From: a virus
Taxonomy: Duplodnaviria > Heunggongvirae > Uroviricota > Caudoviricetes
Virus record (IMG/VR): IMGVR_UViG_3300013307_000673
Length of the DNA stretch: 64,000 nucleotides
Direction: 5' to 3' (one strand)
Under the pieces are notes generated by a model. That model was not told where the DNA came from and made no database searches. It was given only the letters and a program-made list of their open reading frames with translations. Below, one piece after another: positions 6,228-60,935 of this stretch (its first letter is position 1; each line of letters starts with the position of its first letter). The position numbers were made by a program, and so were the translations under genes.

Positions 6228-7331
6228 TTAAAAAGCCACCAACCACCCGCGCAGACTGGATTCCTTGTCATCGCCGTATATCGTTCCGCTATGTTTTTCT
6301 TTTAGAATCCCCATAGCTTTATCGACATTATCTGTAATAACCCAATCCATTCTATCCTTTTCTGAAAGATAAATATTATTGGTCAGATACGTTTCCATTT
6401 TAGGACTATTGTTTTGAGGCCTGTCCTTAGAAATAATCGTATAAAAAGCATTAAAGGTCTTAAAAATTGTATAAAGTTTATCATAATCATGCTGTTTATA
6501 AGCCTCTAACATTTTTTTAAGCTCAGCATTCTTCGGCTCTACAACATCATCCATTTCCCCAACCGTTTTTTTAATAAACGTACTGTCTCTATTGTAGTTT
6601 GCAACTAAAAAATTCCTAATCTCAATATATTTTCTTGACTGCTCTGGTCTCAACATAAACAAATTAGAATCAACTCCATTTTCGCTTGAATATCTTATTA
6701 TATTGCTATACATTTTTTCAGGTAAGGATGGATCTTTTATATAATTATCTCTTGCTGAAAAAGAATACTGAGCATAATCAAGCGCCTCTTTTTTACTCAA
6801 ATTATTTTTTATCTTATCTTGATAAAGACGAATATTTTTCTGTAGCTTTTGTATATTTTCATTCCCTTCAGAAAAATATTCATCTTTTGAAAGCATTCCC
6901 ATAAGTGCTGCCAAATGTTTAGTATTATCTATTCCATTATATTTATATTTTGCTCGAACAAAGGCATCAAAAGTATTTGTTTCATTTAGATACGTAAATA
7001 ATGTATTGTTGCGGGAATCCACATAAATAAACTTGAATAACGCCATATCTTTCTCAAAATCACTCTTAGAATAAGGAACGGCATCAGCCTTATTTTTGAA
7101 TGCTGAATACGTTTCAACGCTTTCAAAGTAAGCAGCTCTACTATCAGCAAAGTTTGACATCTTTACACCATTAGATACAGATGTGCCTATATCTAAGGAT
7201 ACAGCAGTCAGACAAAGTAATGACAATGATATAAAGGACTTCTTGAAAAACCCTTTGGATTTGACTACTGAGTTGTTTTTATTTGTTATCTTTTGCTCAA
7301 AAACATTTTCTTGTCTTTTTAGTTCAATCAT
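6228..7331 (-). CDS. Paralog 5 of the N-anchored membrane-protein family, 367 aa.
   Basis: N-terminal basic segment plus one TM helix. Shares the AVPYS..F..D and YK.HDYDKL...F.TFNAF blocks with four upstream paralogs. Confidence 0.6.
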   Translation of the reverse strand: MIELKRQENVFEQKITNKNNSVVKSKGFFKKSFISLSLLCLTAVSLDIGTSVSNGVKMSNFADSRAAYFESVETYSAFKNKADAVPYSKSDFEKDMALFKFIYVDSRNNTLFTYLNETNTFDAFVRAKYKYNGIDNTKHLAALMGMLSKDEYFSEGNENIQKLQKNIRLYQDKIKNNLSKKEALDYAQYSFSARDNYIKDPSLPEKMYSNIIRYSSENGVDSNLFMLRPEQSRKYIEIRNFLVANYNRDSTFIKKTVGEMDDVVEPKNAELKKMLEAYKQHDYDKLYTIFKTFNAFYTIISKDRPQNNSPKMETYLTNNIYLSEKDRMDWVITDNVDKAMGILKEKHSGTIYGDDKESSLRGWLVAF

Positions 7332-7340
7332 TTTATTTCC

Positions 7341-8399
7341 TTAATAATAAAGAGCAAACATGTCGTCATAATAAACAGCATTCTCAGGGGTATATTCTCC
7401 TTTTGCCCTGGCAATAAAGCGAGCACTGTCAAATATCAATGAGCCATCATATATGCCATCAAATAATACAGAGGATATTAAATTGGTTGTTGGCGCATTT
7501 TTATTGGCATAACTCATTGGCTGCTCAACCATCACATAACTAAAAGCACGAGCCATCTGTAGCAGCTTTCTTAGTTTTTCTTTATCTCCTGATTTATAAT
7601 ACTTTTCTATTTCTGAGTTTGCTTTATTGGCAGACGATTCCACATCATGGAAATATTTATTAAGACCTTCGCTTGTTGAAGTTAGTTTTTTTCTATTATA
7701 AGCGATATTAGGATCTATAAGTAATATATTTTCACTGAAACCTTTCTCTTTTAAATAACTATTCATATTATTGTATATTTCTTGATTATCGCTATTCATA
7801 GGACCTAAACTACCGTATATGTTAGATAATCTTAAAGAGCCGGATATAAATTTTCTTGCCGTATCTGGATCATCTTCAGGCTTTATTGTTCTTTCCATCG
7901 TATTAGAAACACTTACAGGGATGTCTTTAAGCTCGCTATCAGGCAATCCTTTTGTCGCCTGCAGTAGCCGCTCATAATTTTCATTTTGGTCTTTATATTT
8001 AAAACCATTAATTATCATTGAATTAATATTATAGCCACGACCTCCTCCTCTACTATTAACTATTTTCCTATACATTACATTATCTTTATGTCCGTATAGA
8101 TAGTCTAATGTTTTTAGATCATAGTTAAACTGCGCATCAGAATAAGGCACAGAATCAATTTGCTTTTTAAAGCTTTCATATTCAGTTAAAACATTATGGT
8201 TATGCACTTTATATTCCGCAATATTACTTATTTTAATCGAATATGTATTTATCAAAGCAACATCCCATGAGGTGATTGCTGCAACAGTTAAACCTACACC
8301 TAAAGCAATACGCTTCAGCCATGAAGCCTTTGCGATTTTATTTTTTGATACCTTGGAATAGGTATATTTTTGTCCAAACAAGCTTTTTGTTTTTAACAT
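7341..8399 (-). CDS. Paralog 4 of the N-anchored membrane-protein family, 352 aa.
   Basis: Conserved blocks: SVPYSDAQF, EKGFSENILLIDP, YYKSGDKEKLRKLLQMARAF, and a C-terminal YTPEN..YYDD.F.LY. Confidence 0.65.
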   Translation of the reverse strand: MLKTKSLFGQKYTYSKVSKNKIAKASWLKRIALGVGLTVAAITSWDVALINTYSIKISNIAEYKVHNHNVLTEYESFKKQIDSVPYSDAQFNYDLKTLDYLYGHKDNVMYRKIVNSRGGGRGYNINSMIINGFKYKDQNENYERLLQATKGLPDSELKDIPVSVSNTMERTIKPEDDPDTARKFISGSLRLSNIYGSLGPMNSDNQEIYNNMNSYLKEKGFSENILLIDPNIAYNRKKLTSTSEGLNKYFHDVESSANKANSEIEKYYKSGDKEKLRKLLQMARAFSYVMVEQPMSYANKNAPTTNLISSVLFDGIYDGSLIFDSARFIARAKGEYTPENAVYYDDMFALYY

Positions 8400-8409
8400 A
8401 TTTTAGTCC

Positions 8410-9459
8410 CTAGAAATATAATGAAAAAAATGAATCATCATAATACAAAGAGTTATCAGGTGTATAATCACCATTTTTCTGAGCAATCCATTTTATAGTT
8501 TCCGCCACACCATAACCATTTTCAGCATCACCTATAAGCTTAAATGAAAGGGGAGGCTCAACTAATCCCACATTATACGTTTTCTGCGCTATCTCTCCCG
8601 CTATGCGATATTTGAATGCATACGCCATCTGGAGCAGCTCTTTCAGCTTCGCCTTATCACCAGAACGATAAACACTCTCAAGCTCAGCATTCGCTTTCTG
8701 AGTAGACTCTCGCACTTTTGTATAAAACTTTTCAATACCTTCAGATCTATCACCTCGTGAAAGAGCAAGATCAGGCGATATGAAAAGAATATTTTCACCA
8801 AATCCTTTTTCTTTGAAATAATGCTCCATGTTTTCATAAAGCCCTTTATTCAAAGATATTCCCTCACCAAAAGTGGCATAGCTTGCGCTCATTCTATATG
8901 AAGCTAATGAGTTCATTGCCCACTTTACTTTATCCTTTTTAACACCCTCATCCAAAGAAAATACTTTGTATATTTCAGGATTTAGATCTTTGAATTCCTT
9001 TTCAGGCATATCTTTTGTTAAGGTTAGTAGCTTATTATACGTTGCGACCTGATCGATATATTTACCACTTCCTAACGTCATCATGCCTAAAAAAGAACCA
9101 TAACCTCCACTGACGCCGCTCATTATTTTGTTATACATAACGTTCTCCTGATGATTATAGATAACATCAAGAACCTTTAAATCCTGATTAAACTGCGCAT
9201 CTGTATAAGGAACTGCATCTATTTGTGATTTAAATGTGCTATAGGATGATAACGATTTATAATGGTTTACTTTGTAGTTTGCTAATGTGTTTACCTTAGC
9301 AACATCACCACTTAATATAGCCACATCACATGCAGCAATACCTGCCACCGTAAACATTACACCTACTATAACTTTTTTAACAAAAGAGGTCTTACTGACC
9401 TTAGCCGATTTCTCTTTATAGGTTATATCGTTATTAAATACACTTTTAAATTTAAACAT
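8410..9459 (-). CDS. Paralog 3 of the N-anchored membrane-protein family, 349 aa.
   Basis: Conserved blocks: AVPYTDAQF, EKGFGENILFISP, YRSGDKAKLKELLQMAYAF, and a C-terminal YTPDN..YYDD. Confidence 0.65.
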   Translation of the reverse strand: MFKFKSVFNNDITYKEKSAKVSKTSFVKKVIVGVMFTVAGIAACDVAILSGDVAKVNTLANYKVNHYKSLSSYSTFKSQIDAVPYTDAQFNQDLKVLDVIYNHQENVMYNKIMSGVSGGYGSFLGMMTLGSGKYIDQVATYNKLLTLTKDMPEKEFKDLNPEIYKVFSLDEGVKKDKVKWAMNSLASYRMSASYATFGEGISLNKGLYENMEHYFKEKGFGENILFISPDLALSRGDRSEGIEKFYTKVRESTQKANAELESVYRSGDKAKLKELLQMAYAFKYRIAGEIAQKTYNVGLVEPPLSFKLIGDAENGYGVAETIKWIAQKNGDYTPDNSLYYDDSFFSLYF

Positions 9460-9474
9460 TTGCAGTATCCTTAT

Positions 9475-10548
9475 TTAGTGCCATAGAATAAAATCATCTT
9501 TATCGTAGAGCGATTCTTTTTCAGGTATTAGTGTTCCTGTCATCTTCTGATATGCCTTCGCGCCTTGTTGTATAGTTTCATAATAATCATAGTTATTATC
9601 AAAATACGTCATGAGCATAGCAGATATAGGGAAGCCTATATGCGCATTTTCTTTTAGAGATTGATCTACAGCAACAGAAGTAAAAGCATTACCGAGCCGG
9701 AACACCTCCCTTAACTTATCCAAATCTCCATGCTTATAGTATGCCTTCAATGTTTCAATATTTAATGCAACCTCTCTATCTATTTTATCTTGTTCACTCT
9801 GATATTCTTTTGAACTTATTTCCCCAAGCTTCATTTTGATATAAGCCGATTTCCATAAATACATATTTTTGCTTATACCATGTTCGCTTAATAATCTTTC
9901 AAAGTTACCATAAATAGGAGCATACGTATTATCAGCAGCAATATTTAAATCACTATTCATTACAACGAATATAGATTTAGCACGCTTCTTTGCCTGCAAA
10001 TCGTCAGAGTAAGAAAATCCATCGCTTTTTATTTTATATTTATCTGTAATACGCTGTATTTTTTCCGCGTTAAGTGTTGAACTTAGGTTATCACCATTCA
10101 CATCATCAACAGATTCTCGATTCAAAAAAGACATCTCTTTTAAATAACCAACAGGATCAGTGTAAGTGTATTTAAGCAGTAAAAGTGTATCAAGACCATC
10201 GCCATAGTTTATTGTATTTCTAAAAGATTTATTACCCTCAATATAGGTTAACTTAAATATGTTTAAATCTCGGTTAAAATCCGCATCTGAATAAGGAACT
10301 GCTTCCATTTTAGATTTAAACGTCGAATAATTATTTATTTGAGCGTTATTATAGGTTTTATAGTCAACCATATCAGCAACATGCTTAATATTGGTCAGGT
10401 TAACCGCCACATCCCATGAGGCTATAGAAGCAATAGAAAGCGCTACGCCTAAAGCAACTCTTTTGAATAGAGATGCCTTATTGATTTTACTTTTGCTTGT
10501 TTCCCTATAGCTAACATTTTTGTCAAAGATATTTTTAGTTTTTAACAT
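9475..10548 (-). CDS. Paralog 2 of the N-anchored membrane-protein family. Start moved to an internal ATG, giving 357 aa.
   Basis: An AAGGA RBS lies 9 nt before the ATG at 10548. The tabled start at 10578 would overlap paralog 1. Conserved blocks: AVPYSDADF and YYKHGDLDKLREVFRLGNAF. Confidence 0.6.
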   Translation of the reverse strand: MLKTKNIFDKNVSYRETSKSKINKASLFKRVALGVALSIASIASWDVAVNLTNIKHVADMVDYKTYNNAQINNYSTFKSKMEAVPYSDADFNRDLNIFKLTYIEGNKSFRNTINYGDGLDTLLLLKYTYTDPVGYLKEMSFLNRESVDDVNGDNLSSTLNAEKIQRITDKYKIKSDGFSYSDDLQAKKRAKSIFVVMNSDLNIAADNTYAPIYGNFERLLSEHGISKNMYLWKSAYIKMKLGEISSKEYQSEQDKIDREVALNIETLKAYYKHGDLDKLREVFRLGNAFTSVAVDQSLKENAHIGFPISAMLMTYFDNNYDYYETIQQGAKAYQKMTGTLIPEKESLYDKDDFILWH

Positions 10549-10558
10549 TATGAATTCC

Positions 10559-11650
10559 TTATGGCCTATACCAAACATCGAATATGCCTTTTTTATATAT
10601 TTTTTCTTTTTCTGGTGTTAACGAGCCAGTATATTTAGAATACAACTCAGCAGGCTTCAAGAAATTAGTTGTGCCTAACATTTCATCCTGATATAAATAA
10701 AATGAAAAAGAATATCCTAAACGGTAATCATTTTTGATGCCATCAATATAATCAGAAACGACTACTGTCGAAAAGCCGTTACCTATTTTGAATAGCTCCC
10801 TAATCTTTTTAAAATCGCCTTTTTCATAATAAGCACGTAATGCTTCATTATTCTTATTCATCTGATTGTCATAATTTTCATATATTGCTTTTGCTTCAGG
10901 ACTTCCCGATTTACCGATTACTGCATCTAGCTTTTTGACATCTTCTTTTTTGGGAAAATAAGCTTGAGCATTAAACCCTTTCTCCGTCAACAACTGACTA
11001 AGATTATCATAAATTTTACTTTCACTATGCATATAAGTATAAGAGGAGCCTAGCGACAGGTTTGCTCTTATTGACTTGATCATTCCAGGATCACTAAAAT
11101 CTTTCTTATAAGGTTTATGCTTGTCATTAATAGCGCTAATCTTGCCGTAAAAGTCTTTTTCTCTTTCACCTGTCATTTCTTTAACATCACGCCCTTTTGT
11201 GAAGTTATAGACATCTTTATAAAACTCTCCAGGATTATCAAGATTAAAATTCATCTGCAGCATCGTATTTAGCTCCACACCACTACCTACCGGGCCATCT
11301 CTCCACATGTATTTTTTGAAAGCCGCATTATCTGTGCCTCTATAGCCATATATATATTCAAAGGTATTCAGATCTTTTTTGAACTGCGCATCCGTGTAAG
11401 GCACCGCCATCACTCTCGCCTTAAAAGAACTGTAGTTATCAAGTGAGGCATTATCCGCTATCTTGTAATCAACCATTTTATTGATATGAGCAATATTTGA
11501 GGTGGTTACAGCAACATCGTAGGTAGCAAAACCTCCAAATAAACAGAAAGCACCTATAACGATAGGCTTCCACATCTTTCTTTTTATAACAGATTTATCT
11601 GCAGCTACAGTCCTTTGACCGAACAGTGTTTTATTGCCAAACTTTAACAT
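10559..11650 (-). CDS. Paralog 1 of the N-anchored membrane-protein family, 363 aa.
   Basis: GAGGA RBS. TM helix IVIGAFCLFGGFATY. Conserved blocks: AVPYTDAQF and YYEKGDFKKIRELFKIGNGF. Preceded by a sigma70-like promoter and by terminator 11722-11752. Confidence 0.65.
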   Translation of the reverse strand: MLKFGNKTLFGQRTVAADKSVIKRKMWKPIVIGAFCLFGGFATYDVAVTTSNIAHINKMVDYKIADNASLDNYSSFKARVMAVPYTDAQFKKDLNTFEYIYGYRGTDNAAFKKYMWRDGPVGSGVELNTMLQMNFNLDNPGEFYKDVYNFTKGRDVKEMTGEREKDFYGKISAINDKHKPYKKDFSDPGMIKSIRANLSLGSSYTYMHSESKIYDNLSQLLTEKGFNAQAYFPKKEDVKKLDAVIGKSGSPEAKAIYENYDNQMNKNNEALRAYYEKGDFKKIRELFKIGNGFSTVVVSDYIDGIKNDYRLGYSFSFYLYQDEMLGTTNFLKPAELYSKYTGSLTPEKEKIYKKGIFDVWYRP

Positions 11651-21499: not shown

Positions 21500-22123
21500 T
21501 TATTTTCCTGCCTGATATTCCTGCTGGAGCTTTCTTACACGCTCAAGCTCACTTTCTTCATGAACTACACCGCCTGTGTTAAGATCCAGATAGAACTGAA
21601 TCAAGTCACCGTAATCTTTCACATCATAGATCTGGAACAGGAGATGCTTACGGCGCGGCGAGAAGGCTGTTTTAAGCAGTGAAGCCTCATCATATCGCCC
21701 ACCGAAAATCTTAAACTTGCCATCCATGAAATCCACAACGGCAGTTAAACGCTGCAGGCCATCCACACAGAACATATCGTAGCCATGCATTCCCGTCGCC
21801 TCAGCACTGAAATCATGAAACTTGGCGCAGTTAAACTTGATTTCAAGTGGCGCGGTTCCGCGAAGCAAATTTTCAACATATCCAATCTGTTTTTCACGCG
21901 ACCACACATGCCCGCGCTGGAAATCAGGATTTAGGTTAAACACGCCACCATCCAGCTCCGCTTGCTCAGCCTGACGTGCAAGCTCACGTTTTACATTATG
22001 GAGATCGACAGACACACTGTAGTTGCAGGTGCGCATAGGCCGGATAATACGATAAAGCTCGCGCTCTTCTTCACTGAGTCCAGCCCAATGTGAAGGACTA
22101 ACACCAAATTGTTCTTTTTCCAT
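21500..22123 (-). CDS. DUF262 (ParB/sulfiredoxin-fold, GmrSD N-terminal-like) domain protein, about 207 aa.
   Basis: Motifs NPDFQRGHVW and VDGLQRLTAV (the DGQQR signature of DUF262). Start moved to MMEKEQ, which has a GGTGA RBS. The tabled start at 22186 overlaps a TTGCTT-17-TATAAT promoter. Confidence 0.55.
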   Translation of the reverse strand: MEKEQFGVSPSHWAGLSEEERELYRIIRPMRTCNYSVSVDLHNVKRELARQAEQAELDGGVFNLNPDFQRGHVWSREKQIGYVENLLRGTAPLEIKFNCAKFHDFSAEATGMHGYDMFCVDGLQRLTAVVDFMDGKFKIFGGRYDEASLLKTAFSPRRKHLLFQIYDVKDYGDLIQFYLDLNTGGVVHEESELERVRKLQQEYQAGK

Positions 22124-22157
22124 CATAATCACCATAGAGTTCATTAATATGGTTGTC

Positions 22158-22186
22158 ATTATACAGACATCAGAAATCCAAAGCAA
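22158..22186 (-). promoter_or_regulatory. Sigma70-like promoter (TTGCTT-N17-TATAAT) for the DUF262 gene.
   Basis: Hexamers with exact 17-nt spacing immediately downstream of terminator 22188-22212. This implies the real CDS start is downstream of the tabled one. Confidence 0.5.
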
Positions 22187-24433: not shown

Positions 24434-24994
24434 TTAATAAAATGAAAAAACAATCGTTGAGCTTGTTCCCGCAGAGTTACATGCTGTCGCCGCATTTGCT
24501 ACACTCCAGTCAACATTAGATAAATCACTTTTAGCATAACTACCGCCTATGTTAACCATAGACATACTTGGAGCAACTGCTGTTACAAGCTTAACGCAAG
24601 CATCTTGAGGGACGTTGGCATAACTTATATTGAACACAACCTTACCATAGGAAGCATAATTTGTAGCAGACAACTTTACTTTACCTTTAAAACCATTAAC
24701 CACATCTGATACTGTTCCACCACTTTGAACTAACATATTATCAGGAAATATTTGCGCATTTATTCCTACTGTATTATTTACTGTTGTTATATTCGTTGTG
24801 GATGAATATAAAGCCAGTAATCCTGCTCTAATGGTCGCAATATTTTTAGATTCAGCGTCAACTATTTGCGAAGTTCTTACTTTAGGATAAACAATAAAAG
24901 CCGCCACTATTAGCGCCGCTATTATTCCTAAAACCAATAATAACTCTAACAAAGAAAATCCTTTTAACTTTCTATTCCTAATAAAAATCTTCAT
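24434..24994 (-). CDS. Type IV pilin / pseudopilin-like protein, 186 aa.
   Basis: Class III prepilin leader MKIFIRNRKLKG|FSLLELLLVLGIIAALIVAAF, with Gly at -1, Phe at +1 and Glu at +5. C-terminal Cys pair (DACVKL...ATACNS), typical of the pilin disulfide loop. Confidence 0.7.
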   Translation of the reverse strand: MKIFIRNRKLKGFSLLELLLVLGIIAALIVAAFIVYPKVRTSQIVDAESKNIATIRAGLLALYSSTTNITTVNNTVGINAQIFPDNMLVQSGGTVSDVVNGFKGKVKLSATNYASYGKVVFNISYANVPQDACVKLVTAVAPSMSMVNIGGSYAKSDLSNVDWSVANAATACNSAGTSSTIVFSFY

Positions 24995-32314: not shown

Positions 32315-32688
32315 GATAATTCCTTTTTTAAATTAAAGTAGAGTATGATTTTAACACAATGATAGTTTATGCACAACAAAAAAGACGCCGAAGCGTCTTG
32401 TTTGTTCTGAGATAACTTTAGGTTTGCCCGTGATTACTCGTACACTCTCTCGCTTCCTATAGCGATTGTGGCGAATGACATCCACTCTTCCAGATCTATG
32501 TCTGACGTGCTTTTTAGGCCTCATTCTCGGCACTGGCAAAATAAAGCTATCTCAAATCTGGCCTGCTCTTTTAATATCCCGCTCACTGGCTGGGAGGTTC
32601 TCACCCGACATTGATGCCCGTTTAACACGTTCCAGTCTGCATCAACATAGCTATATTATACCAACAAGATATCAATAGCAAGCACTTT

Positions 32689-38326: not shown

Positions 38327-39391
38327 ATGAAACACATAAGAGATATTTCTGTTAGGGCTGTTGCTTCATCGGTATTATTTATTTTTTCATTTTATGCATT
38401 TATTCCTTTTGTATTTTATTTAACCGGAGATATATCAACATCTCTGATATTATTTTCCGCTATTCCTTTTCTGCTATTACCTGCATCACTTTTTATTCGG
38501 CATTACATTACGGTTAATCTGATTAACCCATTATCCTTATTACGTAAAGATATTCATAACCTCAGCAACAAAGACTTCTGTAAGAGCGCATTTTGCTCTC
38601 CTGATCTTGATGTAGTCAGAGAAATGTTAAGCCAATGGGCAACTCAGCAGCAGGAAGCCTCACAGCGTCTTAATGACAGTCTTATCTCACTGGATAAAGG
38701 TAATCTCGCGCTACTCTCCAGAAATGAAACACAGAGCCGCGCTGTTGAGAAAACCGCATATAATGTCAATGAGCTTTATCAGGTCGCCTCACACAACGAA
38801 CAGGAGTCCAATCAGGCCTTTTCATTGGCTTCTATGACACTTGCTGGTGTTCAGGAGGCCATAGAGAATGTTTCACTTATGACAAACTCTACAAGCACTA
38901 TAAAGGACCAGTCTTTGGAGATTAAAAAGATATCAGACTTTATCAGTGAGATGGCCTTTAAAACAAACTTACTTTCATTGAACGCCTCAATTGAAGCCGC
39001 AAGAGCGGGCGATCATGGCAGAGGCTTTTCTGTTGTAGCCAATGAAGTGAGATTGCTGGCTAAAAGTTGTGCTGATTCCGCTCAGGAAATCAAGGCGCTT
39101 GTGAATGATACCTCCTCTCAAATAGAAGATACATTCAAACTGAATAATAAAAACGCGGCTTATATCCATGAAATGCTTACGATGATAGAGAGAACTAATG
39201 TGGCGCTTTCTACGATTAGCACATCATCCAAAGAACAACGCATGAAAATAGAATGTATGAAGAACTCTATTGATAATATTATTATGGCGGTTTACGAAAA
39301 TACAACTTACTCCGAGGAAACTGCTAAGATATTAAACAATATTCGACATGATCTTGATGATATTGAAAAGGAGCATAAAAAGGCCGCATAA
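38327..39391 (+). CDS. Methyl-accepting chemotaxis protein (MCP) signalling-domain protein, 354 aa, with an N-terminal two-helix membrane hairpin and no periplasmic sensor.
   Basis: Near-perfect MCP highly-conserved-domain signature FKTNLLSLNASIEAARAGDHGRGFSVVANEVRLLA. Two adjacent TM helices at residues 10-58. Confidence 0.75.
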   Translation: MKHIRDISVRAVASSVLFIFSFYAFIPFVFYLTGDISTSLILFSAIPFLLLPASLFIRHYITVNLINPLSLLRKDIHNLSNKDFCKSAFCSPDLDVVREMLSQWATQQQEASQRLNDSLISLDKGNLALLSRNETQSRAVEKTAYNVNELYQVASHNEQESNQAFSLASMTLAGVQEAIENVSLMTNSTSTIKDQSLEIKKISDFISEMAFKTNLLSLNASIEAARAGDHGRGFSVVANEVRLLAKSCADSAQEIKALVNDTSSQIEDTFKLNNKNAAYIHEMLTMIERTNVALSTISTSSKEQRMKIECMKNSIDNIIMAVYENTTYSEETAKILNNIRHDLDDIEKEHKKAA

Positions 39392-42767: not shown

Positions 42768-42796
42768 ATAATAGCAAAGACGACCTTTCAGTACAA
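42768..42796 (-). promoter_or_regulatory. Conserved tRNA promoter (TTGTAC-N17-TATTAT) upstream of tRNA-Arg copy 1.
   Basis: Hexamers with 17-nt spacing about 40 nt upstream of the tRNA 5' end. The same -35 octamer GTTGTACT recurs at five other tRNA loci. Confidence 0.55.
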
Positions 42797-44562: not shown

Positions 44563-44591
44563 ATTATACCTATTCTTTTCTTTCAGTACAA
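44563..44591 (-). promoter_or_regulatory. Conserved tRNA promoter (TTGTAC-N17-TATAAT) upstream of tRNA-Ile/Leu(CAA).
   Basis: The -10 element ends about 13 nt before the tRNA 5' end. The -35 element lies within the conserved GTTGTACTGAAAG block. Confidence 0.6.
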
Positions 44592-45069: not shown

Positions 45070-45098
45070 ATCATAGCAAAGCAGATATTTAAGTACAA
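45070..45098 (-). promoter_or_regulatory. Conserved tRNA promoter (TTGTAC-N17-TATGAT) upstream of tRNA-Arg copy 2.
   Basis: Same architecture and flanking sequence (AGCAAAG...AGTACAAC) as the copy-1 locus, indicating a duplicated module. Confidence 0.55.
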
Positions 45099-46733: not shown

Positions 46734-46950
46734 GGTGTCTTCTACTGGATTTGAACCAGTGCGCATTGCTTATTGAAACGAGAATCTACACGACCACGGA
46801 CAACTCCGCCACGGCTCTGTCATTGAGCTAAAGGTTTCCTACTGGAACCTTATCAGACTTTAACTGATACGCATCGCTTAAGTAGATATTTTCTCATCCC
46901 GCAACCACCGTAATCTACGGCCTCGGCTCTAACCACTGAGCTAAGAAGAC
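46734..46950 (-). tRNA. Split or interrupted tRNA-like gene. The 5' acceptor and D-arm (GTCTTCTTAGCTCAGTGGTTAGAGC) and the 3' T-arm and acceptor (ACTGGTTCAAATCCAGTAGAAGACACCA) are separated by about 140 nt.
   Basis: Perfect 7-bp acceptor pairing between the two ends. A tight hairpin (CCGTA-GAT-TACGG) sits where the anticodon arm should be. A TTGTGC-17-TATAGT promoter lies upstream at 46960-46988. Confidence 0.35.
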
Positions 46951-48865: not shown

Positions 48866-50770
48866 TTATCTCTTCAGGAAATACTTCTCAAACAACTCAA
48901 TCTGCTGAGTCAGGAAGTCTTCCTGATATTCAATCACCACATCATCACCTTTTGGCGTCAGAATCGGCGTCATGAAGCCTACCACTGTAGCCAATCCTAA
49001 GCCACTCACACGCTCTAACACCTCTTTATGAACCAACTGATTAACTTTGGTGCCATAGGTCTCTACGAGGGCTTTAGCTGCGTTAAAATCGCCTTCTGAT
49101 TTAATACGCTGAATCTCTGCCAGCAACTGACCGACCAGAGCGCGAACACCATCAAGATCATTAACCTCAATGAAATACTGACCCTCTTTCACAACCATCG
49201 CCATCTGCTCAGGCTTTGCTTTCTCAAGCAACCATGTAGAGATAATCTGGCGGTTTCTGAAGTGAGCTTGCGTCAGATCAGCACCCAAACGCACCCGGCG
49301 CAACTGACCAATAGCACCATTAGTGAAATATGCCACGTATTTAGCCATTGCTGCATCGCGAACATTGACATCCTCAGCAAAAATACCAATCTCTTTTAGC
49401 TTCTCATCAGGGATATAATAAAGCGCAACCAGATCAGCACGACATTCCTCAATTACTGAGTAATACGTGGACAGAACATCACTGTTAACGCCGTCCAGCA
49501 CCTTGCCTGATCCATGACCAGCAATCTCATGTAAGTCCGTATGAAGAACGCCTGTCTCATTGCCATAACGCTTAATCAGATCCTGATATTTATCCAGATA
49601 CAAGGCTTTGGTTAATGGCACATCATAGCTACTACGTGAGGAATCCACGTTAGACAACGTAACGGATTTAGAACCAAACTTTTTACGAATCCAGTCGCTG
49701 TTAGGCAAGTTAATCCCTAAAGGCAGCACAGGAGAGGTTTCTCCAGCCATAGAAATAACATTGATAGAACTCGCAGATAGCCCTACAGCCTTATCTTTCT
49801 TAAAGCGCTTATCAAACGGGAGATTATCCTCAAACCACTGGATATTATCAATGATACGCTTCACTTTAGCTGTCTGTGCTGGATTTTTAAACGCAACCAA
49901 ACTCTCAAAGTTACACGCCACACCTAGCGGATCTTTATAAGATTCAATCAAGCCATTTACGAAATAAATCGAACTATCCTGATCTTGCGTCCACGCTACA
50001 CAGTGCTTATCAAAATCAGCAGCATCACCCGTCTCATAGAAGGTAATCAGTGTCTCAATAGAGGCATGTTGTTTTTCATTTTCAGTGTAGTTCAGAGCAA
50101 GCTTAAGCTCTTTAATGATTTCTTTAACATAGCGACCATAAAGACCATCAGCGAAGATGACTTCTCGTTTAATCTCACCCGTGAGATGATTTTTTAGGAG
50201 TTTCTCGTTAAATCCGTAAGGTGGAATCTCATCATTATCATGTTTCGGGTAGGCTTCTTTGCGAAAAGCAATTACTTCCTCGGTGGTAAGGCCAGCATAG
50301 AAGTTAACACCAGACTGCTTAACCACATCTACGCCGTCTTTTTGAACGGTGCGGTATAAAGGTAGATTATAGGTATCGTTCTCAAAAAGAAATATTTCAA
50401 TCGATAAGGCAGCTAATGAACAGTAAACATTAGAACACAATACATCAAATTGCTCACTATCCAGAGGCAGTGTCAGTTTTTCACCTGTTGTGGTATGATA
50501 AAGACCACCGTGCGCAAAGAGCATAAATAAACTATCACGAACCTGCTTAAAAGCTTCAGTTTCTTTATCAAGATGTTTATACATATGGATTAGTGCAGGA
50601 ATAACGATAAGGTTAGCGCTTGATCCCTGAGTCAGCCCGATCACTTTCCCCCACATACCCGCTTCTGACAGATGATAAGCCAGACGTTTAGTGCGGCTAT
50701 CGAGTGATGAGAAGCCTTCAGTGTCCAGCTTTACGATTGCAATATCATTAAGACGTTCAGAATATGTCAT
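48866..50770 (-). CDS. Dipeptidyl-peptidase III-like zinc metallopeptidase (M49 family), 634 aa.
   Basis: M49 signature motifs HEIAGHGSGK (HExxGH) and IEECRADLVALYY (EECRAE/D) at the expected spacing. Full-length, comparable to cellular DPP III. Confidence 0.7.
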   Translation of the reverse strand: MTYSERLNDIAIVKLDTEGFSSLDSRTKRLAYHLSEAGMWGKVIGLTQGSSANLIVIPALIHMYKHLDKETEAFKQVRDSLFMLFAHGGLYHTTTGEKLTLPLDSEQFDVLCSNVYCSLAALSIEIFLFENDTYNLPLYRTVQKDGVDVVKQSGVNFYAGLTTEEVIAFRKEAYPKHDNDEIPPYGFNEKLLKNHLTGEIKREVIFADGLYGRYVKEIIKELKLALNYTENEKQHASIETLITFYETGDAADFDKHCVAWTQDQDSSIYFVNGLIESYKDPLGVACNFESLVAFKNPAQTAKVKRIIDNIQWFEDNLPFDKRFKKDKAVGLSASSINVISMAGETSPVLPLGINLPNSDWIRKKFGSKSVTLSNVDSSRSSYDVPLTKALYLDKYQDLIKRYGNETGVLHTDLHEIAGHGSGKVLDGVNSDVLSTYYSVIEECRADLVALYYIPDEKLKEIGIFAEDVNVRDAAMAKYVAYFTNGAIGQLRRVRLGADLTQAHFRNRQIISTWLLEKAKPEQMAMVVKEGQYFIEVNDLDGVRALVGQLLAEIQRIKSEGDFNAAKALVETYGTKVNQLVHKEVLERVSGLGLATVVGFMTPILTPKGDDVVIEYQEDFLTQQIELFEKYFLKR

Positions 50771-52148: not shown

Positions 52149-52273
52149 ATTTATTCTCCATCGATTATTTACGCTCTATATCATTATGCTTTTCAAATAG
52201 CAAATCTATATAGTTGTCAATTTGATTTACCCCCTGCTAAATGATACAGTTTAGAAAAATAAAGGAGATTACA

Positions 52274-53233
52274 ATGTTTAGTCTAACTGATGTTATGCGT
52301 GTATTCGATAACCGCGCCAGAGAGTTTGCTGGTCTGAGAGAAGATCAGATTTTTATGTTTGATGCGAGCGCTGAAGAAATCATTAAAAGAAGCCAAAAAA
52401 GAACGCTATGGGGATTGGGAAAGCCCGAAACTCTTGATTTTAAAGTGAGAACAACCAGTGGGTTTACACCGTTTTCTAAAACCGATGAGTTAGCCAAAAT
52501 CAAACTCTTTATAGAAAATGGCGCTGATATTAATAAAGTTGACATCTATGGCGAAAATGCTCTTTTCAACCAAAGCTACAGCATTGAAAACACTATTTAT
52601 TTATTAGAAAAAGGCATTAACGTTAATCAGCGGAATACAAAAGGCGAAAATGTTCTTGATAATCTTCACTTTCACCATGATTATGATGAAGCTATAGCTG
52701 AGCTTTATATAAAATATGGCATCGACTACCATCATGTTAATCCCAAGACTCAACGTAATGGTTTATTTACTTTAGACCATCAAAAAGGCTTATTTTTAGT
52801 TAAAAATGGAATCAATATTCATCAGATTGATTCGTATGGTCGCAATATGCTTTTTTATTTAGATAGCAACGAAAAAGACGGAAGCCTTCAGCTATTAACT
52901 GAGCTTATCAAACAAGGGATTAATATTAATCAAGTCGATCAATGGGGGCGCAATGCTTTATTTGAATCAGGCTCTGATATTAAAAAAGCCCGATTACTTC
53001 TTGAGGCAGGAATAAATGTTAATCAAGTTGATGAAAAAGGGAATAGTGCATTAGAATATACTTATTGGGAAGATAATGAAAAACTTTTATTCTCTTATGG
53101 CATTAAAGATAGAGAATATAAAAAGGAAGGCATGTTCACAAAAGAAAGAATGAGATTTGCAATGAGAAATCACAGACAGGACAACTGGAGTGCTCTTTTT
53201 AAGTCATCTCCAAAATTAAGTTATGAAGTGTAA
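52274..53233 (+). CDS. Ankyrin-repeat protein, about 319 aa, with at least five ANK repeats.
   Basis: Repeated G(A/I)(D/N)(I/V)N..(D/N)..G.NALF/LxYL blocks (GADINKVDIYGENALF, GINVNQRNTKGENVL, GINIHQIDSYGRNMLFY, GININQVDQWGRNALFE, GINVNQVDEKGNSALEY). Start moved to the ATG at 52274 (AAGGAG RBS). Confidence 0.65.
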   Translation: MFSLTDVMRVFDNRAREFAGLREDQIFMFDASAEEIIKRSQKRTLWGLGKPETLDFKVRTTSGFTPFSKTDELAKIKLFIENGADINKVDIYGENALFNQSYSIENTIYLLEKGINVNQRNTKGENVLDNLHFHHDYDEAIAELYIKYGIDYHHVNPKTQRNGLFTLDHQKGLFLVKNGINIHQIDSYGRNMLFYLDSNEKDGSLQLLTELIKQGININQVDQWGRNALFESGSDIKKARLLLEAGINVNQVDEKGNSALEYTYWEDNEKLLFSYGIKDREYKKEGMFTKERMRFAMRNHRQDNWSALFKSSPKLSYEV

Positions 53234-53622: not shown

Positions 53623-53698
53623 TGGTGCACTCGGAGGGATTCGAACCCCCGACACCCGGATCTTCAATCCAGTGCTCTACCAACTGAGCTACAAGTGC
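53623..53698 (-). tRNA. tRNA-Phe (anticodon GAA), copy 1 (anticodon loop TTGAAGA).
   Basis: GCACTTGTAGCTCAGTTGGTAGAGCACTGGATTGAAGATCCGGGTGTCGGGGGTTCGAATCCCTCCGAGTGCACCA. Canonical cloverleaf. Confidence 0.75.
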
Positions 53699-53828
53699 AT
53701 AGTCTTATCAGGTTAGGTGTTGTATCGGCCCACCTCTTAAACGATAATAGGAAAGTCTGGTTTCGCTCCAAACGTGCTATTACCTTTCACATCCACTCAC
53801 GTTGTCGGACGCAACCTAATAAAACAGG

Positions 53829-53903
53829 TGATTTCTGCAGGACTCGAACCTACGTCGTCAGCGGATTCTCCCGCCAATGCTCTACCCGTTGAGCTAAAAA
53901 ATC
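53829..53903 (-). tRNA. Aberrant tRNA-like gene. Acceptor, D-arm and T-arm are canonical, but the anticodon arm is a tight GCGGG-AGAA-TCCGC hairpin (or an 8-nt loop GGAGAATC). No CCA encoded.
   Basis: GATTTTTTAGCTCAACGGGTAGAGCATTGGCGGGAGAATCCGCTGACGACGTAGGTTCGAGTCCTGCAGAAATCACC. No 7-nt anticodon loop can be drawn. Confidence 0.4.
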
Positions 53904-54146: not shown

Positions 54147-54221
54147 TGGTGTCCCGTGCAGGAATCGAACCTGCAACTCCCTCTTAGGAGGAGGGGATTA
54201 TATCCGTTTAACTAACAGGAC
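54147..54221 (-). tRNA. tRNA-Arg (anticodon CCT).
   Basis: GTCCTGTTAGTTAAACGGATATAATCCCCTCCTCCTAAGAGGGAGTTGCAGGTTCGATTCCTGCACGGGACACCA. Anticodon stem CCCTC/GAGGG with loop CTCCTAA. Confidence 0.65.
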
Positions 54222-54385
54222 GCTATACAAAACATTCTATCCAATCAGAAACTCGATTGCAAGCACTTTTTAAGCCATACTTCATTTTCTCGCTCAGAAT
54301 TACTCTTTTTTCATTCAGCTATGGCTTTACTTTATATTGTAATGCTCTTAAATTGTAACTATACACTACATTAAGGAAATAAAAA

Positions 54386-59859: not shown

Positions 59860-59936
59860 TGGTGTTCAGTACTGGATTCGAACCAGTGTCGATAGAAATG
59901 CGATCCTACCCGATATACCACTAATCTCAACTAAAC
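59860..59936 (-). tRNA. Aberrant tRNA-like gene. Acceptor and T-arm are good, but the anticodon stem GGTAG/CTATC encloses a 10-nt loop (GATCGCATTT) and the D-stem is weak.
   Basis: GTTTAGTTGAGATTAGTGGTATATCGGGTAGGATCGCATTTCTATCGACACTGGTTCGAATCCAGTACTGAACACCA. Confidence 0.35.
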
Positions 59937-60004: not shown

Positions 60005-60080
60005 TGGTGGAAGTTATCGGATTCGAACCGATCCAGATGCTTGAGTTACAAACAGAGCTGTCAAACCAGAGTTGACTCCC
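60005..60080 (-). tRNA. Aberrant tRNA-like gene. Acceptor and T-arm are good, the D-stem has 3 bp, and the anticodon arm TGTTT/AAGCA has loop GTAACTC (or a 6-bp stem with a 5-nt loop).
   Basis: GGGAGTCAACTCTGGTTTGACAGCTCTGTTTGTAACTCAAGCATCTGGATCGGTTCGAATCCGATAACTTCCACCA. Confidence 0.35.
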
Positions 60081-60347: not shown

Positions 60348-60422
60348 CACCGCTGCAGGGACTCGAACCCTATCCGTCAACATCGCCGCCGGGCGACAAA
60401 TCACGGGATTACTCCCACCGAT
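60348..60422 (-). tRNA. Possible degenerate tRNA-like element. It has a T-arm, an acceptor with one G-G mismatch, and a tight TCGCC-CGGC-GGCGA hairpin at the anticodon position.
   Basis: ATCGGTGGGAGTAATCCCGTGATTTGTCGCCCGGCGGCGATGTTGACGGATAGGGTTCGAGTCCCTGCAGCGGTG. Weakest of the tRNA-like calls. Confidence 0.2.
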
Positions 60423-60552
60423 TATAGTAGATGCCTCTACTTGACTTTAACGCTTGCTTTTCAGCAAATCCAATCCATACTCATTGGTTACTTATGTACA
60501 ATTTTCGCCAATTTTCTTTTGCGTCTTACTCGGAGTCGAACCGAGAAGCGGT

Positions 60553-60637: not shown

Positions 60638-60666
60638 ATCATACCCTATTCAAACCTGAAGTACAA
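60638..60666 (-). promoter_or_regulatory. Conserved tRNA promoter (TTGTAC-N17-TATGAT) upstream of tRNA-Phe copy 2.
   Basis: The -35 element lies within GGTTGTACTTCAGG with 17-nt spacing. The -10 element ends 10 nt before the tRNA 5' end. Confidence 0.55.
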
Positions 60667-60815
60667 CCATTTTTTATTGGTTCACGCGACGGGTCTTGCT
60701 CCCGCAGCCTACTTTACAGATACTCAGCCGTATACAGCCTTTTTCCAACCTGACGTGTTTTGCGGGGCGTTTCCCCTTCATAGTCAGGTGACGTTCTACT
60801 ATTGAACTACGCGTG

Positions 60816-60897
60816 TGGTGCATAAGAAAGGACTCGAACCTTTACACAATTTCATGGTCAAACCATGTATCCGCTCTACCAACTGAGCTACTTATGC
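60816..60897 (-). tRNA. Aberrant tRNA-like gene. Acceptor, D-arm and T-arm are canonical, but the anticodon region is a CATGG-TTTGA-CCATG hairpin plus 11 extra nt (possible TTG/Gln-like loop GTTTGAC).
   Basis: GCATAAGTAGCTCAGTTGGTAGAGCGGATACATGGTTTGACCATGAAATTGTGTAAAGGTTCGAGTCCTTTCTTATGCACCA. Confidence 0.35.
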
Positions 60898-60906
60898 AGT
60901 AAAAAG

Positions 60907-60935
60907 AGTATACCTAACTTCTTTCTTAAGTACAA
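60907..60935 (-). promoter_or_regulatory. Conserved tRNA promoter (TTGTAC-N17-TATACT) upstream of the 60816..60897 tRNA-like gene.
   Basis: GAGTTGTACTTAAG -35 block with 17-nt spacing. Confidence 0.5.

Follow-up and report, generated by a model that had tools for sequence, protein, structure and literature searches.

The stretch of phage DNA analysed here, referred to as the window, comprises 64,000 nt of IMG/VR record IMGVR_UViG_3300013307_000673 (Caudoviricetes), and the tRNA genes called in it by ARAGORN all lie on the minus strand between 42 and 61 kb. Within this array, between the genes for tRNA-Arg(CCU) and tRNA-Phe(GAA), lies a tRNA-like gene at 53827-53903, hereafter the target, whose anticodon arm departs from that of a tRNA (Table 1). 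ARAGORN labelled the gene tRNA-???, with an 8-nt loop and a 4-base 'anticodon' AGAA, and the Rfam tRNA model RF00005 matched 53829-53903(-) with 47.2 bits (E = 6e-7 over the whole window; gathering score 29). This tRNA-like signal is far above chance. In the RF00005 alignment made by Infernal the anticodon loop was bypassed via a local end, with 10 nt in place of the 7 in the model. An earlier sequence-only reading of the window, made by a model, had proposed that the anticodon loop of this gene is replaced by a tight hairpin and that no standard loop can be drawn, and had suggested ARAGORN and RF00005 as checks; both were run and neither gave a normal 7-nt anticodon loop. The neighbouring tRNA-Arg(CCU) and tRNA-Phe were found normal by ARAGORN and Rfam, in agreement with the statement of that reading that no reading artefact was involved.

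The RNA deduced from the target reads GAUUUUU UA GCUC AACGGGUA GAGC A UUGGCGG GAGAAU CCGCUGA CGAC in its 5' part and, after the variable region CGAC, continues as GUAGG UUCGAGU CCUGC AGAAAUC A CC. The D arm and the T arm are as had been described earlier, and the acceptor stem GAUUUUU/AGAAAUC has the expected seven pairs but is not perfect, with six Watson-Crick pairs and one U.G. In the minimum-free-energy fold, a cloverleaf, the 'anticodon' stem has 7 bp and its loop 6 nt. The 4-nt tetraloop that the sequence-only reading had taken as the defining feature did not hold up: closing the loop to AGAA through a G.U pair is possible in the window sequence but unnecessary, and the orthologue loops described below (GAGAAU, CAGGGU and CAGGGUU) cannot, as a set, close to 4 nt. 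Compared with RF00005, the acceptor stem, a D arm with G18 and G19 and a T arm with a UUCRANY loop were all present, and the 5-bp anticodon stem, the 7-nt loop, U33 and a purine at position 37 were all lacking. Given this failure in the anticodon arm, the target is not a member of RF00005 in the functional sense.

A megablast search of the locus against INPHARED gave no near match among cultured phages, and the window was 93-96% identical to a 259-kb IMG/VR contig; on these grounds we assign it to an uncultured jumbo phage. A distant blastn search against phages returned homologues of the RNA in the spacer between the target and tRNA-Phe only and none of the tRNA-like gene. The 259-kb contig was identical to the window over 53.4-55.9 and 56.6-60.8 kb, the target included, and was therefore uninformative on selection. 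Close variants of the target, found through a neighbouring 144-aa protein in short SRA-derived contigs, carried the D-loop change G17A, an A-to-G change of the discriminator, and the tails ACCU or ACUU. A protein-profile search gave a distant relative, the 341-kb IMG/VR contig L020 (52% identity on a 268-aa protein; relatives are given here as L numbers), and three further contigs of this second lineage and one of the first came from a metagenome scan in which the conserved downstream spacer served as anchor. The resulting alignment comprised eight distinct orthologues from two diverged lineages, which share about 50% protein identity on a neighbouring gene. The target was present in 10/10 loci covering the position, and the order tRNA-Arg(CCU), target, tRNA-Phe was found in every one of them, including L018, L020 and L022-L025. 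A scan of IMG/VR with a D-arm/T-loop pattern found six unrelated canonical tRNAs only, and a pattern indifferent to the anticodon arm (D arm, 18-32 nt, T arm, 3' acceptor strand) found the same two IMG/VR contigs and nothing in GTDB genomes, so that no relative with a normal anticodon loop was recovered by this pattern from either collection.

The pairing of the cloverleaf was then compared across the eight orthologues. With a 7-bp anticodon stem 98.9% of the stem cells were paired (100% in the acceptor, D and T helices and 96.4% in the anticodon helix), as against 39-59% in controls in which the 3' partner was slid by 1-3 columns. The canonical register of 5 bp and 7 nt was paired in only 57.5% of cells, which bears out the claim that no standard anticodon loop can be drawn. 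Changes on both sides of a pair were found at 2-71 (A-U to G-C), 27-46 (U-A to G.U) and 31-42 (C-G to U-A), and several one-sided changes, including those at 28-45 and 29-44, left the bases paired. Between the window and L020 21/78 columns differ, eight of them in stems, and between the window and L024 22 columns differ, ten of them in stems; no pair is broken in either comparison. The anticodon stem is 7 bp in both lineages, with a U.U mismatch at the outermost pair 27-46 in L022/L023.

Outside the helices the orthologues fell into fixed and free parts. U8, A14, A15, G18, G19, the T-loop UUC (U54 U55 C56) and A58 were invariant and the discriminator was A in 7/8 orthologues (G in L013/L015), whereas the anticodon loop (GAGAAU, CAGGGU or CAGGGUU) and the 4-nt variable region (CGAC or GAGU) both varied freely between the lineages. 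U33 or a purine at position 37 was found in none of the orthologues. Inspection of the variable loop by eye, for pairing with the downstream RNA or for a Shine-Dalgarno-like character, gave nothing consistent across both lineages. These comparisons indicate that the conserved feature is an elongated 7-bp anticodon stem with a short unconstrained loop. CCA was encoded in no orthologue (tails CCU, CUU, CAU), unlike in the canonical tRNAs of the same phages listed by a T-arm scan, all of which end in an encoded CCA. A covariance model built from the target family scored the orthologues at 93-101 bits, one per genome, and its next best matches were tRNA-Phe genes at 53-62 bits, which suggests that the target descended from a tRNA-Phe duplicate.

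Upstream of the cluster a sigma-70-like match precedes tRNA-Arg, but the consensus scan gave two regional matches against 4.5 expected from shuffles, which is chance level. The sequence-only reading had stated that the genes of this kind retain promoters. This applied to the gene at 60816-60897, where the motif TTGTACT-N17-TATNAT, which also precedes four canonical tRNAs, was found (6 matches against 1.3 expected), but consensus and motif scans gave no promoter of its own for the target in this window. In the L020 lineage a promoter-like element, TTGTTT-17-TATTAT, was present at the target gene itself.

Downstream of the target the spacer to tRNA-Phe holds a second conserved RNA, whose structure starts about 10 nt after the target and ends at tRNA-Phe. 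Across the target, the spacer RNA and tRNA-Phe the two lineages are 83.8% identical, and within the spacer RNA the P3-P4 core, with the motif CGUUUAAGA-stem-GGCCGAUACAA-stem, is nearly invariant. The spacer RNA had no Rfam match, and its core motif had no match in the GTDB bacterial genomes scanned; several loose pattern matches (e.g. L028) lay inside coding sequence and were dropped. Homologues were found in Klebsiella Stephanstirmvirinae phages, in the spacer between tRNA-Ala and tRNA-Leu, and in Erwinia phages. Given that the homologue in Klebsiella phage KP13-26 lies between canonical tRNA-Ala and tRNA-Leu genes without the target, and that in the 290-kb IMG/VR contig L033 the RNA stands behind its own promoter with no flanking tRNA, the spacer RNA is independent of the target gene.

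Two further observations concern the surroundings of the target in the second lineage. An open reading frame (ORF) of L020 with a type IV pilin-like N terminus (KGFSLLELLLVLGIIAAL...; L020:15018-15576) lies, in the L020 lineage, between tRNA-Arg(CCU) and the target, and its homologue in the window is found 30 kb away at 24434-24994(-), which points to rearrangement around the tRNA cluster. This lineage also carries a CUA-anticodon tRNA, called 'Pyl' by ARAGORN (L020:12019-12093, L022:4138-4212, L023:4429-4503 and L024:342-416), a potential amber suppressor that hints at stop-codon recoding; no CUA-anticodon tRNA was found in the window.

The architecture of the target had been said to recur at three other sites of the window, and this was upheld at one of them. 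The gene at 60816-60897 matched the Rfam tRNA model with 50.9 bits, again through a local end (18 nt for 11 model positions), and its long sealed stem consists of 8-9 bp in two parts with a bulge, closed by a loop of 5-6 nt that is not conserved. In the L020 orthologue the long stem was kept with the loop GCAAAG instead of UUUGA, and the acceptor stem showed compensatory changes at 6-67 and 7-66. ARAGORN called both genes tRNA-Pro (UGG in the window and GGG in L020); we rejected these calls because they use different registers, U33 is lacking and the arm is bypassed in the Infernal alignment. This gene is the same kind of RNA as the target.

At 46734-46950 the earlier claim stood in part. The hairpin CCGUA-GAU-UACGG is real and was retained with a compensatory change among the window, L002 and the paralogue L019:1053-1272, but the gene is not a split tRNA, and the interpretation as an interrupted tRNA was rejected in favour of a conserved composite RNA of 217 nt. 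An outer tRNA shell (acceptor stem, D arm, the hairpin, T arm and ACCA) encloses a long helix bearing a permuted module of T arm, hairpin and D arm, in the order found in YrlA Y RNAs, and Rfam gave a weak YrlA match at 46791-46904.

The third site, 60348-60422, is not a 75-nt cloverleaf, and the idea of one architecture common to four sites was abandoned. Neither ARAGORN nor Rfam called a tRNA there, and the hairpin UCGCC-CGGC-GGCGA was found to be an insertion absent from L020 and L010. Its acceptor-like 3' strand pairs instead with the segment immediately after a tRNA-Phe gene (ACCGCU/AGCGGU), and this end pairing covaries (GCCGUG/UGCGGC in L020, GCCGCGA/UUGCGGC in L010). This suggests an RNA of about 204 nt spanning 60349-60552(-), which would enclose an 'orphan' T-arm hairpin at 60522-60545; a conserved promoter-like TTGTACA...TATGGA also lies inside it, and the two features are hard to reconcile.

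Three further tRNA-like RNAs had gone unnoticed in the sequence-only reading. In the gene at 59863-59936 conservation covers the acceptor stem and the T arm, where two pairs show compensatory changes, and the anticodon arm varies in sequence and size among the relatives, from 6 bp with an 8-nt loop down to about 4 bp with a 4-nt loop; CCA was lost in L010 and L020, and in L009 the whole gene was deleted between CACCAAG repeats. The RNA at 60005-60080 resembles the tRNA-like domain of tmRNA. Its G3.U70 pair and central segment were invariant, ACCA is encoded, and the acceptor stem showed compensatory changes at 4-69 and 6-67 in L010 and L020, so that it may be a phage 'mini-tmRNA' without the message part. 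The RNA at about 60678-60815 is highly similar to L020:4742-4876, with most aligned columns identical; it has a 7-bp anticodon stem ACCUGAC/GUCAGGU with a U-A to A-U change in L020, its large loop bears the hairpin GGGG-AAACG-CCCC, its variable arm is long and its T loop, AGCAAGA, is atypical. The phage lineage is unusually rich in conserved tRNA-like and other structured RNAs.

Table 1. Target gene, its parts, its neighbours and the other tRNA-like RNAs of the window.
Feature	Position	Strand	Description	Evidence
Target, putative non-decoding tRNA-like gene	53827-53903	-	75 nt plus encoded CC	ARAGORN, Rfam, minimum-free-energy fold, orthologues, covariation
Elongated 'anticodon' arm of target	53858-53877	-	7-bp stem, RNA positions 27-33 with 40-46; 6-nt loop GAGAAU (53865-53870)	
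D arm of target	53879-53894	-	GCUC-AACGGGUA-GAGC; A14, A15, G18 and G19 invariant	8-orthologue alignment
T arm of target	53837-53853	-	GUAGG-UUCGAGU-CCUGC; equivalents of U54, U55, C56 and A58 invariant	
3' acceptor strand and discriminator of target	53829-53836	-	AGAAAUC and A, then CCU (CUU or CAU elsewhere), never CCA	
tRNA-Arg(CCU), canonical	54147-54221	-	243 nt upstream of target, same strand	ARAGORN, Rfam
tRNA-Phe(GAA), canonical	53623-53698	-	Downstream of target; its closest canonical relative	ARAGORN, Rfam, covariance model
Sigma-70-like match	54234-54262	-	TTGCAA-17-TAGAAT upstream of tRNA-Arg; candidate promoter for the Arg/target/Phe cluster	
Structured spacer RNA	53699-53826	-	Between target and tRNA-Phe; four helices in a cloverleaf-like arrangement	RNAalifold, 38 pairs, 3 compensatory
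TTGTACT-N17-TATNAT motif	42768-42796, 44563-44591, 45070-45098, 60638-60666, 60905-60935	-	Directly upstream of tRNA or tRNA-like genes; mostly preceded by an A-tract	
Composite RNA, formerly 'split' gene	46734-46950	-	217 nt	RNAalifold, 68 pairs, 9 compensatory
Second sealed tRNA-like gene	60816-60897	-	Arm GAU(A)CAUGG-UUUGA-CCAUG(AA)AUU; encodes CCA; promoter motif at 60905-60935	
Third aberrant tRNA-like gene	59863-59936	-	Missed by the sequence-only reading	Rfam, 35.5 bits
RNA like the tRNA-like domain of tmRNA	60005-60080	-	76 nt; missed by the sequence-only reading	tmRNA model, tRNA-like domain only, 23 bits, 21 nt for 318
tRNA-like RNA	about 60678-60815	-	About 140 nt; adjoins the CCA of the previous gene; missed by the sequence-only reading	

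The target is very likely a real, conserved, non-decoding RNA of tRNA shape, and it probably arose from a tRNA-Phe duplicate that was selectively maintained as a mimic. In the mechanism that we favour, it would be transcribed from the minus strand together with tRNA-Arg(CCU) upstream and the structured RNA and tRNA-Phe downstream, and excised by tRNA-maturation enzymes, with RNase P acting at the 5' end and, since CCA is not encoded, RNase BN/Z-type cleavage followed by CCA addition at the 3' end. Release and CCA addition of the target RNA are plausible, since the acceptor/T-arm half is what RNase P, RNase Z/BN and the CCA-adding enzyme recognise, and since host RNase BN and nucleotidyltransferase mature those tRNAs of phage T4 that lack CCA. 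The RNA would then take up the usual L-shape of a tRNA, its acceptor end and elbow intact, in which the anticodon arm is a closed 7-bp helix capped by a small variable loop. Because the arm is closed, no codon could be paired and no standard anticodon loop would be available for cutting; we would also expect no aminoacylation. Acting in trans, such an RNA could serve as a harmless competitor or decoy for a protein that recognises the overall tRNA shape, the elbow and the acceptor end, leaving translation unperturbed, and the most plausible partner would be a defence or toxin of the host directed at tRNA, or one of the enzymes with which the host handles tRNA. We propose this trans-acting decoy or competitor mechanism tentatively, and it may well be wrong.

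Support for the mimic comes from the comparison of the target with its neighbour at 59863-59936. The target stem is 7 bp in both lineages whereas the arm of the neighbour varies, which argues that selection acts on the whole L-shape of the target, beyond the acceptor/T-arm half, and favours a mimic acting in trans. The same phages also carry other sealed or anticodon-less mimics (60816-60897 and 60005-60080), and phage tRNA genes have been linked to the evasion of tRNA-targeting defences (PMC10264068; bioRxiv 10.1101/2023.03.15.532788).

Several points weigh against this reading. The covariation is based on few independent events in two diverged lineages, the change G33A in the close relative L012 opens the innermost stem pair, and the conservation of the anticodon stem could reflect a mere need for a stable fold. 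A partner protein was not found: searches of the larger window ORFs against Pfam and PHROGs showed no tRNA-related enzyme, with no match to tRNA-modifying enzymes, ligases, nucleotidyltransferases, Ro60 or reverse transcriptases. Nucleases that read the anticodon loop are not expected to bind a closed arm, which makes a decoy for such enzymes less likely, and catalytic enzymes are in general hard to titrate with a decoy.

Among known systems the target seems to work most like the non-decoding mimics, that is, the TMER elements of murine gammaherpesvirus 68 (MHV68), mascRNA, the tRNA-like domain of YrlA and that of tmRNA. Like the target, TMERs and mascRNA are virus- or transcript-encoded cloverleaves that do not encode CCA and are linked to another structured noncoding RNA; they do not decode, and tRNA-processing enzymes recognise them and so free the linked RNA (PMC4838037; PMC11693755), as is predicted for the target; in the target the RNA joined to the tRNA-like fold is the four-helix RNA about 10 nt downstream. 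Those systems differ in that they are eukaryotic, TMERs are RNA polymerase III units and the anticodon arm of mascRNA is reduced, whereas the target lies in a phage tRNA operon, its arm is lengthened to 7 bp and under selection, and its downstream RNA family also exists without it. YrlA Y RNAs (RF02553), like the target, mimic tRNA with nucleotides of the D and T loops conserved and without an anticodon function. Y RNAs with a tRNA-like domain are known in 22 bacteriophages, and the model of Deinococcus Yrn1 has an 'anticodon loop' of 6 nt (PMC4201824). In YrlA the order of the arms is circularly permuted (T arm, stem, D arm), a helix that binds Ro60 is present and rsr lies adjacent, whereas the target has the normal order of D, anticodon and T arms and no Ro60-binding helix, the permuted order being seen in the RNA at 46734-46950. 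Rfam gave no YrlA match at the target, and Pfam found no TROVE-domain (Ro60) gene among the 36 ORFs scanned out of the larger ones of the window, which covers 64 of the roughly 260 kb of the genome. The tRNA-like domain of tmRNA is likewise an anticodon-less mimic, and a 76-nt domain-only version lies 6 kb away in the same phage, whereas the target has an invariant U3-A70 rather than G3.U70, a full D arm and an anticodon-arm helix, and its best Rfam match is tRNA and not tmRNA. The stable RNAs of the phage T4 tRNA cluster (species 1 and 2) and the 'pseudo-tRNAs' of large phages are also small structured RNAs in tRNA arrays released by tRNA-processing enzymes, but those RNAs are longer and not simple 75-nt cloverleaves. 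In the literature searched, of which coverage was incomplete, no description was found of a phage tRNA mimic that is free-standing and whose elongated anticodon stem is maintained by selection.

By analogy with the TMER tRNA-like elements and with mascRNA at the end of MALAT1, the fold might instead have been kept as a cis-acting processing or punctuation module, at which cuts by RNase P and RNase Z/BN would free tRNA-Arg, the downstream RNA and tRNA-Phe from one another and set the 5' end of the second of these, the tRNA-like RNA itself being a by-product. Several points favour this: the target sits inside an array of tRNAs and noncoding RNAs and no promoter was found for it alone in this window, the structured RNA that follows after about 10 nt is very conserved, endonucleolytic 3' cleavage is implied by the lack of an encoded CCA in all orthologues, unlike the canonical tRNAs of these phages, only the acceptor stem and T arm are kept in the sister element at 59863-59936, and in TMERs a tRNA-like element with downstream hairpins is processed by tRNase Z (PMC4838037). 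Yet the downstream RNA family occurs without the target (in KP13-26 between tRNA-Ala and tRNA-Leu, in L033 with its own promoter), the promoter-like element of the L020 lineage stands at the target itself, and the 7-bp stem was kept by compensatory changes although the enzymes are generally known to need only the acceptor/T-arm half. We regard such a module, the main rival of the decoy reading, as rather unlikely.

A more improbable alternative is an anticodon-independent aminoacyl carrier, charged by a synthetase that ignores the anticodon and either feeding a non-ribosomal transferase or sequestering EF-Tu. In its favour, the acceptor stem, the discriminator (A in 7/8) and the D- and T-loop tertiary nucleotides are conserved, and the tmRNA-like tRNA domain in the same phage has an invariant G3.U70, the alanine identity pair. 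Leucyl-tRNA synthetase is not known to read the anticodon, and the A73 and the A14-A15 D loop of the target, like the D loop AAUUGGUA of the L020 lineage, presumably resemble those of tRNA-Leu, a likeness that we take as a lead only. The variable arm of the target is not long, however, the window ORFs scanned included no transferase gene, and its closest relatives are tRNA-Phe genes, phenylalanyl-tRNA synthetase being generally known to depend on the anticodon.

It is very improbable that the target is an unusual decoder, i.e. a +1 frameshift suppressor or a quadruplet-reading tRNA with an 8-nt loop, an option raised in the sequence-only reading as an 'expanded-loop decoder'. ARAGORN drew an 8-nt loop and a 4-base anticodon in every orthologue, as in the +1 suppressors SufD, SufJ and SufB2, and natural suppressors with one extra loop nucleotide are known (SufJ, SufB2; PMC4238358; bioRxiv 10.1101/2020.12.31.424971). 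Those suppressors retain a stem of 5 bp, U33 and a purine directly after the anticodon, whereas in the target position 33 holds G or C, the putative anticodon is followed on its 3' side by U, and the two bases left unpaired in the ARAGORN drawing form a conserved G-C pair that brings the stem to 7 bp. Neither a standard loop plus one nucleotide nor a conserved four-base anticodon was found: the 'anticodon' of the window lineage, AGAA, is replaced by AGGG in that of L022-L024, the loop length differs in L020, and the loop is not alignable by Infernal. Equally improbable is the decaying, functionless tRNA pseudogene that had also been considered earlier, for although the gene is tRNA-derived, has lost its anticodon loop and encoded CCA, has a dispensable-looking neighbour (59863-59936, deleted in L009) and carries the stem-opening G33A in one relative, it keeps its place in both lineages despite a protein identity of about 50%, and in all 10 loci, its tertiary nucleotides are invariant, 98.9% of the stem cells are paired, three pairs are compensatory, and no pair is broken by the 8-10 stem substitutions between the lineages.

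Some observations were made elsewhere in the window. Five consecutive ORFs of 349-367 aa at 6228-11650(-) look like a tandem array of paralogues; those at 6228-7331 and 7341-8399 had no Pfam match, and the first of them also had no match in PHROGs. A borderline Rfam match to sraL, an enterobacterial Hfq-binding small RNA, was found at 32538-32646(-) (39.3 bits; gathering score 39), and together with the homologues of the spacer RNA in Klebsiella and Erwinia phages it hints at a host among the Enterobacterales. Genes that are unusual as phage cargo encode a methyl-accepting chemotaxis signalling-domain protein (38327-39391(+)), an M49 (DPP III-like) peptidase (48866-50770(-)), an ankyrin-repeat protein (52241-53233(+)) and a protein with a GmrSD N-terminal domain (21500-22186(-)).

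Phage tRNA genes are now seen partly as countermeasures against host enzymes that destroy tRNA. A phage RNA that keeps the tRNA shape with a closed anticodon end would represent a different tactic, imitation without decoding. More tentatively still than for the target by itself, the lineage might encode a set of purpose-built anticodon-less mimics (53827-53903, 60816-60897 and the 76-nt RNA like the tmRNA domain) acting in trans on the host machinery that recognises tRNA; such a set might sequester enzymes of defence or toxin systems directed at tRNA bodies or 3' ends, or might block trans-translation, and would go unseen by the ribosomal decoding centre. If the target binds a host factor, that factor would be a point of phage-host conflict, and the target a natural design for inert tRNA decoys. 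On a more modest reading, the tRNA arrays of large phages are dense with conserved noncoding RNAs that standard annotation labels 'tRNA-???', mislabels (as with the tRNA-Pro call at 60816-60897) or misses.

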